A stretch of 64,000 nucleotides of DNA from Vicinamibacteria bacterium (GTDB lineage Bacteria > Acidobacteriota > Vicinamibacteria > Marinacidobacterales > Marinacidobacteraceae), in assembly GCA_963555995.3 (NCBI GenBank), contig OY821641.1, positions 3,680,001-3,744,000 of the forward strand, given 5' to 3'. The position numbers and the translations under genes were made by a program. Within the stretch, counting starts at the first letter, position 1; each line of letters begins with the position of its first letter. The notes below the pieces were generated by a model, which searched no databases, had not been told where the DNA came from, and worked only from the letters and a program-made list of their open reading frames with translations. This document shows positions 17,362 through 20,491 of the stretch, piece by piece.

Positions 17362-17847
17362 CTATCTGTTGGGGTGAAAGAGCGAGCCGCTCCGGTCGGG
17401 TCGTGGCGCTTGCCGCCCTTGCCGGAGGGCTTCTTCCGACGCGAGGGTATGGGCCCTTTCGTTCCCCGGGTGGCCAGCGTGACCCCGGACCCACTGGAAC
17501 CGCACGGCGGGCCGCTTCCGGCGCGCGTCGTCCAGGCGCCGCCACAGGTCGGCGTTCTTGACCGGGCGGCGGTTCGCGGTCTGCCAGCCGCGCCGGACCC
17601 AGGACGGAAGCCACTCGGTGATGCCCTTGACCACGTACTGACTGTCGCAGAACACGGTGGCCGAGGCCCCGTCCGGCACCGCTTCCACCGCCCGGATCGC
17701 GGCGGTGAGTTCCATCCGGTTGTTCGTGGTGTTCGGTTCACCCCCCGAGAGGACCCGCTCCTCTCCGGCAGCGGTCAGGATCACCGCCGCCCATCCCCCC
17801 GGGCCGGGGTTCCCGAGGCAGGAGCCGTCGCACGCGATCTGCAACAT
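17362..17847 (-). CDS. rnhA: Ribonuclease HI
   Basis: DGSCLGNPGPGG, TTNNRMEL, DSQYV, KNADLW, WVRGHAGHPGNERA. Confidence 0.95.
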   Translation of the reverse strand: MLQIACDGSCLGNPGPGGWAAVILTAAGEERVLSGGEPNTTNNRMELTAAIRAVEAVPDGASATVFCDSQYVVKGITEWLPSWVRRGWQTANRRPVKNADLWRRLDDARRKRPAVRFQWVRGHAGHPGNERAHTLASEEALRQGRQAPRPDRSGSLFHPNR

Positions 17848-17889
17848 CCGCTGGGTATCCTATGTGGCGGGTTCCTTCTCCCCATTCGG

Positions 17890-18447
17890 ATGTCCTGGAT
17901 TCACATGGTTCCGCCCACCGCCCCCGAGGGGCAGGCGGGGCGGCTCGGGGAGCTCTACCGGCGGCACCGGCGTCCCGATGGACTGGTGGACAACATCCTG
18001 AGGGTGTCCAGCCTGAATCCGGAAGCGCTGGAGCACCACCTGTCCCTCTACGAACACTTGATGCGAGGCGTATCGGGCCTCAGCCTCGCCGAACGGGAAC
18101 TGATCGCCGTCGCCGTTTCGGTGGTCAACGACTGCCACTATTGAATCGAGCACCACCGGAGAGGTCTTCTCCGGCTGACCCGGGATCGGCACCTGGTGGA
18201 CGCCCTGTGCCGTGATCCGGAGGGTTGCCCGCTCACGCCGCGCCAGCGGGCGCTCGCCGACTACGCGATCAAGCTGGCGCGGACCCCGGGCAGCCTGGTG
18301 GAGCAGGACATCGAGCCGCTCCGATGCATCGGACTGTCAGACCGCGACATCCACGACGCCTGCGCGGTGGCCTCCTACTACTGCTTCGTGAACCGCATGG
18401 CGAACGGCCTGGGGGTGCAACTGGAGGAGGCGGAAGCCGCTCGGTAG
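17890..18447 (+). CDS. AhpD-like / peroxidase-related selenoprotein (185 aa, C82xxU85)
   Basis: ERELIAVAVSVVNDCHY-TGA-IEHH continues in frame to FVNRMANGLG; TGA at 18142-18144; SECIS-like hairpin follows. Confidence 0.88.
18156..18174 (+). promoter_or_regulatory. Bacterial SECIS element
   Basis: CCGGAGA-GGTCT-TCTCCGG stem-loop beginning 11 nt after the UGA; AGGUCU apex as in the E. coli fdhF SECIS. Confidence 0.82.
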
Positions 18448-18461
18448 CCCGGCTGGCGCAC

Positions 18462-18510
18462 GTTGGAACGCCGGTCTCCCGACCGGCACGCGCGGCGCTC
18501 CGCGCGGCGC
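18462..18510 (+). repeat. REP-like element, copy 4
   Basis: TTGGAACGCCGGTCTCCCGACCGGCACGCGCGGCGCTCCGCGCGGCGC between convergent genes. Confidence 0.85.
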
Positions 18511-18556
18511 CCGTCGCAACCCCACCCACCCTCAGGGCGCGGTCCGGAAATACCCG

Positions 18557-20491
18557 TTACGGACCGCCGGCGCTGCCCTGAACCGCGGCGTCAAGCCGTT
18601 CGAGTTCCTCGTAGAGGGCCGGCAGCCGGCCCTTCAGGTCCTCGTAGGTGGCCGTGACCTCGCGGGACCCCTCGCGGTCGCCGAAGAAACCGGGCGCCGC
18701 CATCCGCGCCTCCAGGCTCTCGACGGCGGCCTCGGTGTCCGCGATCGCCTCGAACACTTCGCGCCATTCGCGCCGCAGTTGCCGCAACCGGTTCTTCCCG
18801 GGCGACCGGCGCGCGCCGGTCTTGCCCGCCGGCTTCGCGTTTCGCTTCGGACGTTTCGCCGCAGCCGGTGCGGGCGCCGGGGAAGCGGCCGCGGCGGGCT
18901 CCGGGAGGCTGACCCTCGCGAGGTAGTCCGAGTAGTTGCCCCAGTAGAGGGCCGCTCCGCCGCCGCCGATCGCCGCCACCCGGGTCGCCAGGGCGTCCAT
19001 GAAGTACCGGTCGTGGGCGACGAACACGATCGTGCCCTGGTAGTTCGAAAGCGCGTTCAGGAGCGCCCGCTTGGAGTCCAGATCGAGATGGTTGGTCGGC
19101 TCGTCGAGGAGGAGGAGGTTCGCGGGACGGAGGAACAGGCGGGCCAGCGCCAGCCGGCTTCGTTCGCCGCCGGAGAGGACCGCGGTCTTCTTCTCCACGG
19201 TCTCTCCCGAGAACAGGAACGCACCCAGGATGTTGCGGATCTCCGGGAGCATGGCGAGCGGCGCCGCGTCGGCCATGGTCTCCCGTACCGTCCGGTCGGG
19301 GTCGAGATCGTGCCGGTCCGGCCCGTAGTAGGCGATGCGGACGTTGTGGCCCAGCTCCCGATCGCCGGTGTCCAGCCCTTCCTCACCGGCGATCAGCCGG
19401 ATGAGGGTGGATTTCCCGGCGCCGTTCCGCCCGACGAGCGCCAGGCGCTGGCCGCGCTCCACGACCAGGTCCACGTTGCGGAAGACCTCGTTGGTTCCGA
19501 AGGCCTTGGACACCGCGGTGAGCGTCACGAGGACCCGCCCGGAACGCGGCGGGTGCGGCAGCCGGAGAGCCACCCGCCGGGGCTCCGGCGGCGCTTCGAT
19601 CCGCTCGATCTTCTCGAGCATGCGGATCCGGCTCTGGACCTGCCGCGCGCGGCTGGCCTGATAGCGGAACCGGTTGATGAAGCGTTCGGTCCGCTCGATC
19701 TCGGCCGCCTGCTCGGCGGCCCGCTTGCGCAGGTCGGCGATCTCGGCGGCCCGCCGGGTCTCGTAGCGGCTATAGGTGCCCGGATAGTTTCCGAGCCGGC
19801 CCAGCCCGATCTCGGTGATCCGGGTCACCACGGAGTCGAGGAAGAACCGGTCGTGGGCGACCAGCACCAGGCCGCCGCGGTGACGGGCCAGGAAGCCGAG
19901 CAACCAGGTCCGGGCTTCGATGTCCAGATAGTTCGTAGGCTCGTCGAGGAGGACGAGGTCGTTCGCCTCGGCCAGCAGCCTGGCGAGGGCGATGCGCATC
20001 TGCCAGCCCTGGCTGAAGGTCTCCACGGGGCGGTCCTCGTCTCCGGCCGCGAATCCCAGGCCGGAGAGGACTTCGCTGATGCGGGTGTCCATTTCGTACC
20101 CGCCGCGGCGCTGCCACTCCTCCTCCAGTTCTCCGTAGCGGGCGATCAGGTCGGGCTGATCGGGGGTCCCCGCCAGCGCTTCCGCCACCTCCTCCTGTTC
20201 GCGCCGCAGCCGGAGCAGGTCGGCGAAGGCGGTGCGCACCTCCCCGGCGACGGTGCGCCCCTCGAGGCTCAGCCCCTCCTGGGGCAGGTACCCGACGCGT
20301 TTCCGCCTGGCCAGCACGACCTTTCCGGCGTCGGGACGAACCAGTCCCGCAAGGATCTTCAGGAGGGTGGTCTTGCCGGATCCGTTGGGTCCCACCAGTC
20401 CGACGCGGTCGCCGTCTCCAACCTGCCAGGACACCTCACGGAGCAGCACCTGTTCTCCGTAGGCCTTCGAGGCTTCGACGAGCTGGATCAT
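18557..20491 (-). CDS. ABC-F family ATP-binding protein
   Basis: Two ABC domains (GPNGSGKT / GRNGAGKS; LLDEPTN twice), QVQSRIRML linker, no TM segments, C-terminal coiled coil. Confidence 0.93.
   Translation of the reverse strand: MIQLVEASKAYGEQVLLREVSWQVGDGDRVGLVGPNGSGKTTLLKILAGLVRPDAGKVVLARRKRVGYLPQEGLSLEGRTVAGEVRTAFADLLRLRREQEEVAEALAGTPDQPDLIARYGELEEEWQRRGGYEMDTRISEVLSGLGFAAGDEDRPVETFSQGWQMRIALARLLAEANDLVLLDEPTNYLDIEARTWLLGFLARHRGGLVLVAHDRFFLDSVVTRITEIGLGRLGNYPGTYSRYETRRAAEIADLRKRAAEQAAEIERTERFINRFRYQASRARQVQSRIRMLEKIERIEAPPEPRRVALRLPHPPRSGRVLVTLTAVSKAFGTNEVFRNVDLVVERGQRLALVGRNGAGKSTLIRLIAGEEGLDTGDRELGHNVRIAYYGPDRHDLDPDRTVRETMADAAPLAMLPEIRNILGAFLFSGETVEKKTAVLSGGERSRLALARLFLRPANLLLLDEPTNHLDLDSKRALLNALSNYQGTIVFVAHDRYFMDALATRVAAIGGGGAALYWGNYSDYLARVSLPEPAAAASPAPAPAAAKRPKRNAKPAGKTGARRSPGKNRLRQLRREWREVFEAIADTEAAVESLEARMAAPGFFGDREGSREVTATYEDLKGRLPALYEELERLDAAVQGSAGGP

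Follow-up and report, generated by a model that had tools for sequence, protein, structure and literature searches.

An AhpD-like gene with a predicted selenocysteine at an in-frame UGA in a Vicinamibacteria genome

The locus lies in a window of 64,000 nucleotides (contig OY821641.1 of the Vicinamibacteria assembly GCA_963555995.3, positions 3,680,001 to 3,744,000) and comprises a gene for an AhpD-like protein, with rnhA located upstream on the opposite strand in divergent orientation, and a gene encoding an ABC-F ATPase on which the AhpD-like gene converges. The reading frame of the AhpD-like gene runs from an ATG to a TAG and contains a single in-frame TGA, at codon 85 (Table 1). The original prediction had noticed that the gene is split at this codon and had proposed that read-through yields one continuous AhpD/CMD-like protein; both points were borne out, as one program-listed ORF ends at 18144 and another one (83 aa) begins at 18196, and as the translated product of 185 residues, in which the UGA has the context NDCHY-U-IEHH, is recognized by the family profiles (see below). 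The composition of the DNA remains of the coding type downstream of the TGA (GC3 0.87 vs 0.83 upstream). A sequencing error does not account for the TGA, since the region 18080-18220 shows zero differences in the contigs from three out of three near-identical public runs (which stem from one study and possibly from the same source DNA) and since the other 15 genomes of the genus likewise have the TGA.

Table 1. Features of the AhpD-like gene (window coordinates) and further candidate selenoprotein genes in the genome (coordinates preceded by G000:C1)
Feature	Coordinates	Strand	Basis
AhpD-like gene read through one UGA, 185 aa	17890..18447	+	TIGR01926 and Pfam CMD
Glu70, predicted AhpD proton relay	18097..18099	+	Glu in 56/56 TGA forms; spacing as for PA0269 Glu36 and M. 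tuberculosis AhpD Glu118 (PMC3141380)
Cys82, predicted resolving residue at the first position of CxxU	18133..18135	+	Cys in 56/56 TGA forms and 134/150 representatives
In-frame TGA, predicted Sec85, second position of CxxU	18142..18144	+	TGA kept in homologues; Cys in solved ones
His89, predicted AhpD proton relay	18154..18156	+	His in 56/56 TGA forms and 142/150 representatives
Predicted SECIS hairpin within the coding sequence, with a 7-bp stem and a GGUCU loop	18156..18174	+	folding, rare codons, covariation
AhpC/TSA-like, UxxC, candidate selenoprotein	G000:C1:1619913	+	
OsmC-like, UxxT, candidate selenoprotein; 1.1 kb from the AhpC/TSA-like candidate, same strand	G000:C1:1621024	+	
Two adjacent rhodaneses, candidate selenoproteins	G000:C1:1885614 and 1885163	-	
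CYCXC family, candidate selenoprotein	G000:C1:1335270	-	NF041379, above cut-off
MerB-like candidate selenoprotein	G000:C1:1026209	-	
Second peroxiredoxin-like candidate selenoprotein	within G000:C1:1183092-1183541	-	

The match of the read-through product to TIGR01926 (142.4 bits vs a cut-off of 81.8; residues 22-177) runs across the TGA, and so does the match to the Pfam CMD domain. The cut-off of NF041238, the profile of an AhpD-related selenoprotein with the motif CFYUT, was not reached (43.7 vs 175 bits). An AlphaFold2 model (alignment of 21; pLDDT 93.7) predicts helices at residues 66-79 and 83-97 and points to the all-helical AhpD fold with its helical hairpin; a fold search with this model retrieved Mlr4105 (3c1l), the D. 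radiodurans structure 6k40 and 2pfx with TM values of 0.82-0.90. The relay that is formed by Glu70, Cys82, Tyr84, Sec85 and His89 is complete in the protein. It had been proposed to check whether homologues carry a Cys opposite the TGA, and they do: the five best solved homologues have a Cys at position 85, as do 121 out of 150 representatives, the others having Gly (10), Ser (7), Trp (3), Leu (3) or another residue (4) or leaving the position uncovered (2), which amounts to a non-Cys residue in 27 of the 148 representatives that cover it. Cys85 was likewise found in 17 of 20 database matches (17 of the 18 that are full-length), with a Gly in one and with two matches ending just before position 85.

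The same databases illustrate how such genes are mis-annotated, as the original prediction had stated for CxxU AhpD-like genes in general: relatives end exactly at the TGA, and in one database cluster all 12 members do so. Gene callers thus treat the codon as a true stop, and with the GTG start that is available at 18196 the locus could be read as a pseudogene or as a pair of short genes (84 and 83 aa). Against this reading stands the fact that the break coincides with the catalytic position, and that a 3' gene starting at 18196 would miss His89 together with residues 86-102, which are part of the core as modelled. Moreover, 56 loci from several families of the class share the TGA at this codon, with no TAA or TAG among them, and the half downstream of it is conserved in frame.

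These loci were recovered as follows. A homologue was matched in 56 of the 61 genomes searched (15/15 within the genus and 24/27 within the family), and 71 loci were examined, namely 70 of the 125 listed matches (the top 30 and 40 hand-picked ones, among which stop-free matches were deliberately included as controls) and a single locus from Flavobacteriaceae. Of the 71, 56 have TGA at codon 85, nine have Ser and six have Cys, and all 25 loci of the same family have the TGA, each followed by 94-128 more open codons; because the relatives are not independent, these counts overstate the conservation. The gene selA was found in 58 of the 61 genomes. All three homologues examined in a genome in which selA was not found (G059, 99% complete) have TGC at this codon, and two further genomes without a recovered selA (G036, 83% complete, and G055, 72% complete) each contain a TGA-form homologue, and go against the pattern of selA and TGA unless their incompleteness accounts for them. 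A tree was obtained by a quick search (113 rows, among them 32 of the 71 loci together with 55 of the Cys representatives); it is mostly unresolved and supports no count of Sec gains or losses. Within the same order a well-supported clade of paralogues (L071-L078 and L081) was observed that has CxxS, with Ser at the Sec position, in 9/9 loci; the three of these paralogues that were included in the tree group with a Flavobacteriaceae Cys form.

The genome (3.80 Mb, 93% complete, 70% G+C) encodes the complete set of decoding components whose presence elsewhere in the genome had been implied by the original prediction: selA (489.7 bits, cut-off 267.9), selB (297.1 bits, cut-off 242.25), selD (247.4 bits, cut-off 125) and a tRNA-Sec (69.7, Rfam gathering score 47) with the anticodon TCA. 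SelB has its beta-barrel domain as well as a winged-helix domain. SelD (L011; G000:C1:2910615-2912894, minus strand) is of the Cys-type and carries a fused N-terminal pyridine nucleotide-disulfide oxidoreductase domain, a fusion that has been mentioned before (PMC2398784).

Either a lack of Sec machinery or homologues with Trp or another non-Cys residue at position 85 had been named beforehand as a finding that would contradict a selenoprotein; the machinery is present and the family residue is Cys, though three Trp, ten Gly and seven Ser forms occur among the 150 representatives. The Trp and Gly forms could be taken to indicate that the UGA directs the insertion of Trp, Gly or Cys and involves no selenium, through an alternative code or by leaky read-through. 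An alternative code is at odds with the approximately 1232 long coding frames of the genome that end in TGA, and with its 54 tRNAs, among which only the Sec type has a TCA anticodon and tRNA-Trp has CCA. In addition, the tree places one Trp and two Gly forms as sisters to TGA clades (support 90-92), as would be expected for Sec codons translated under another table, and some of the Trp and Gly database forms may be TGA codons that were translated under tables 4 or 25. The Trp forms (P0031, P0130 and P0149) and the ten Gly forms (e.g. P0032 and P0046) include several from short metagenome contigs. A metagenome scan with one Trp form yielded four loci of 30-44% identity, and its own source contig was not recovered. 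Given the conservation of the TGA, the large number of frames that end in TGA and the Sec type of the sole tRNA with a TCA anticodon, we regard both a true stop and a selenium-free reading of the UGA as very unlikely, and insertion of Sec at codon 85 as very likely.

The original prediction also included a textbook SECIS element with the spacing and apex of that of fdhF. The hairpin indeed starts 11 nt after the TGA (stem 18156-18162 and 18168-18174, loop GGTCT at 18163-18167), and its GGTCT apex is situated 18 nt past the TGA both here and in fdhF of E. coli K-12; the stems differ, as that of fdhF is bulged and of unrelated sequence and the one found here is a perfect 7-bp duplex. The hairpin is present in the minimum free energy and centroid structures of all four windows folded. 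It agrees in all respects (loop 5, stem 7, spacing 18, -10.7 kcal/mol) with a published SECIS consensus, i.e. a loop of 3-9 nt, a stem of 4-16 bp, a G in loop positions 1-2, a spacing of 16-37 nt and an energy of -7.5 kcal/mol or lower (PMC13188914).

Taken alone the hairpin is weak evidence. The folding energy was rejected as proof of a SECIS, with three of the four windows not significant (z = 0.18 for the 49-nt window; z = -2.19 for the 31-nt window, with 6 out of 200 shuffles as good), and a loose rule for bacterial SECIS elements is passed by 272 of the 1232 ordinary TGA stops of the genome. The precise geometry (a loop that starts with GG at 17-19 nt and a stem of at least 6 bp) occurs after 7/1232 stops, and after 0/1232 when GGT is demanded.

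The comparisons of codon usage, of forms with and without the TGA and of covariation provide stronger evidence. Arg91 is encoded by AGA or AGG and Gly92 by GGT in all 25 same-family loci, while the usage of those Arg and Gly codons in the genome is 3.7% and 6.4% (1767 training ORFs), and the two columns rank first and third of 145 in rare-codon excess. Codons 86-95 show a synonymous divergence of 0.197 as compared to 0.376 elsewhere, which ranks only sixth of 126 windows (five are lower). A fixed hairpin test (stem of at least 6 bp and a loop that begins 16-19 nt downstream of the codon, with G in loop positions 1-2), the thresholds of which were chosen once hairpins had been viewed, was passed by 44 of the 56 TGA forms, and thus failed by 12, and by 0/15 Cys/Ser forms, 59/1232 stops and 93/2509 in-frame Cys codons; fdhF itself fails this test because of the bulge in its stem. 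Covariation over 49 distinct rows was 0.293 at the true register vs 0.137-0.198 for six slid registers, with pairing in only 66.5% of the cells because distant clades have a shifted register. The kinship of the loci inflates the counts in all of these comparisons. The TGA forms in the alignment (A1, L024-L110) have the hairpin in at least three registers, with the loop at 18, 16-17 and 24 nt, so that sub-clades seem to have arrived at different hairpins within one and the same coding segment.

The AhpD-like gene is accompanied in the genome by at least seven further candidate selenoprotein genes of known families with a TGA within the family match (L111-L116 and L137; Table 1). A genome-wide read-through scan gave 22 candidates, the AhpD-like gene among them. 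Twelve of the 22 were checked against protein families and six of these proved selenoprotein-like; the other six resembled ordinary gene junctions or showed no family across the TGA. A Sec-type formate dehydrogenase was not found, the one match to the molybdopterin family PF00384 having no internal stop, and at 93% completeness of the genome its absence is not established. The lineage has retained the Sec machinery alongside eight or more candidate small selenoproteins, with no Sec formate dehydrogenase found.

With respect to function, the protein likely acts, by analogy, as a thiol/selenol peroxidase or as a reductant of peroxiredoxins. DR1765 (6k40, which the titles suggest to be the same protein) and Mlr4105 are Cys-type, peroxidase-related proteins whose CxxC aligns to the CxxU described here, and they differ by a Cys in place of the Sec at the second position. 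The D. radiodurans structure 6k40 has a TM of 0.89 to the model, and a DR1765 mutant is sensitive to H2O2, with both Cys residues needed for complementation (PMC8945050). A five-residue proton relay has been described in PA0269 (2o4d) and M. tuberculosis AhpD (PMC3141380). The spacing of that relay is identical to the one found here (Glu, Cys, Tyr/His, Cys and His at 0, +12, +14, +15 and +19), and the Tyr at the third position is shared with PA0269, a weak H2O2 reductase whose activity depends on cysteine. The similarity to these two proteins is much lower (E 1e-7 for PA0269 and E 0.76 for M. tuberculosis AhpD), and there is no adjacent ahpC at the present locus.

Following the known bacterial pathway, SelD would provide selenophosphate and SelA would form the Sec-tRNA, after which SelB would bind the hairpin 11 nt downstream and bring Sec to UGA85. 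By the enzymology of AhpD, Glu70 and His89, together with Tyr84, would activate position 85, the selenolate would attack a hydroperoxide or the disulfide of a partner, Cys82 would resolve Sec85 to a selenenylsulfide, and an NADH-fed dihydrolipoyl carrier would regenerate the reduced protein. In work on M. tuberculosis AhpD the second Cys position was reportedly the attacking one. The reduction of AhpD is lipoamide-dependent (PMC8945050). Ten matches to the AhpC/TSA family are present elsewhere in the genome, two of which have an internal TGA, and the encoded proteins are possible clients of the AhpD-like protein.

Sec could also be inserted in a protein that functions as a reductive dehalogenase, in the manner of the tetrabromopyrrole debrominase Bmp8 or of the Sec deiodinases. 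Sponges are a habitat rich in brominated compounds, and the contig of a relative is present in an RNA library of a sponge metagenome. Bmp8 (6ohi/6ohj), compared here by fold and sequence only, has the fold in common with the model (TM 0.79 for 6ohj), was retrieved in the profile search (E 1.4e-6) and uses Cys-based redox chemistry, debrominating reductively via cysteine oxidation to a disulfide (PMC5577590, PMC7918430). It is on the other hand an enzyme of a biosynthetic cluster that has only Cys, shares about 20% identity with the AhpD-like protein and was absent from the single-sequence search (E up to 10), whereas Mlr4105 and the D. radiodurans protein are much nearer (30-35% identity, profile E about 1e-48). 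Moreover, neither a bmp gene cluster nor any other gene of halogen metabolism was found among the identified neighbours. We consider a dehalogenase improbable, and the same holds for the more specific idea of a Sec counterpart of Bmp8 that debrominates halogenated metabolites in marine host-associated Acidobacteriota; if true, such a debrominase would represent a bacterial selenoenzyme and a parallel, independent of fold, to the animal deiodinases. That the locus holds one intact gene, with Sec at UGA85 and an AhpD-type redox role, is the prediction we prefer and consider very probable.

The gene is an added member of a CxxU family that has already been catalogued, and represents a correction of annotation rather than new biology; the result will not surprise selenoprotein specialists. 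For the AhpD-like CxxU selenoproteins (COG2128), the Sargasso Sea study of 2005 reported 27 sequences (PMC1088965), and 299 were reported in GOS in 2008 (PMC2398784). A review of 2026 places the 'AhpD-like protein, TIGR01926, CxxU' under 'Predicted with high confidence' (PMC13188914), and the family can be browsed in BSepDB (PMC13326102). With that family ('AhpD-like 1') the present gene shares the HMM, the CxxU motif and the in-frame UGA with a downstream hairpin, and there is no qualitative difference. The string 'Acidobacteri' is absent from the main texts of the last two sources (PMC13188914, PMC13326102), the supplements of which may well cover the lineage, and a literature search at the level of titles returned nothing on selenoproteins of sponge-symbiont Acidobacteria. 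The value of the gene lies in the corrected annotation, as pipelines truncate it at the active site, and in its use as a clean test case for AhpD-like selenoproteins that are so far predicted only: the family has only predicted status in the 2026 review, the protein is small, the apex of the SECIS is fdhF-like and solved Cys homologues exist.

As to the neighbourhood, the divergent rnhA is present in all 25 same-family loci and in none of five more distant loci (flanks of 1.5 kb), and the adjacent genes, rnhA and the ABC-F ATPase gene, include no peroxiredoxin, lipoyl-enzyme or ahpC gene. A consensus scan of 17700-18650 recovered no sigma-70 consensus promoter and no terminator. The 42-bp gap between rnhA and the AhpD-like gene (17848-17889) has no obvious Shine-Dalgarno site; it does contain the sequence TATCCTA (17856-17862), a possible -10 element that is found in 16/16 genomes of the genus. 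The signal in three RNA libraries consists of small shares and concerns contigs of relatives, and is not proof of transcription. Immediately 3' of the gene lies a dispersed intergenic repeat of 50-60 nt (18456-18515), REP- or MITE-like in character, that has 448 BLASTN matches genome-wide (E <= 1e-3), seven of them within the window, with copies near 1104, 12452, 14649, 47306, 56352 and 56557.
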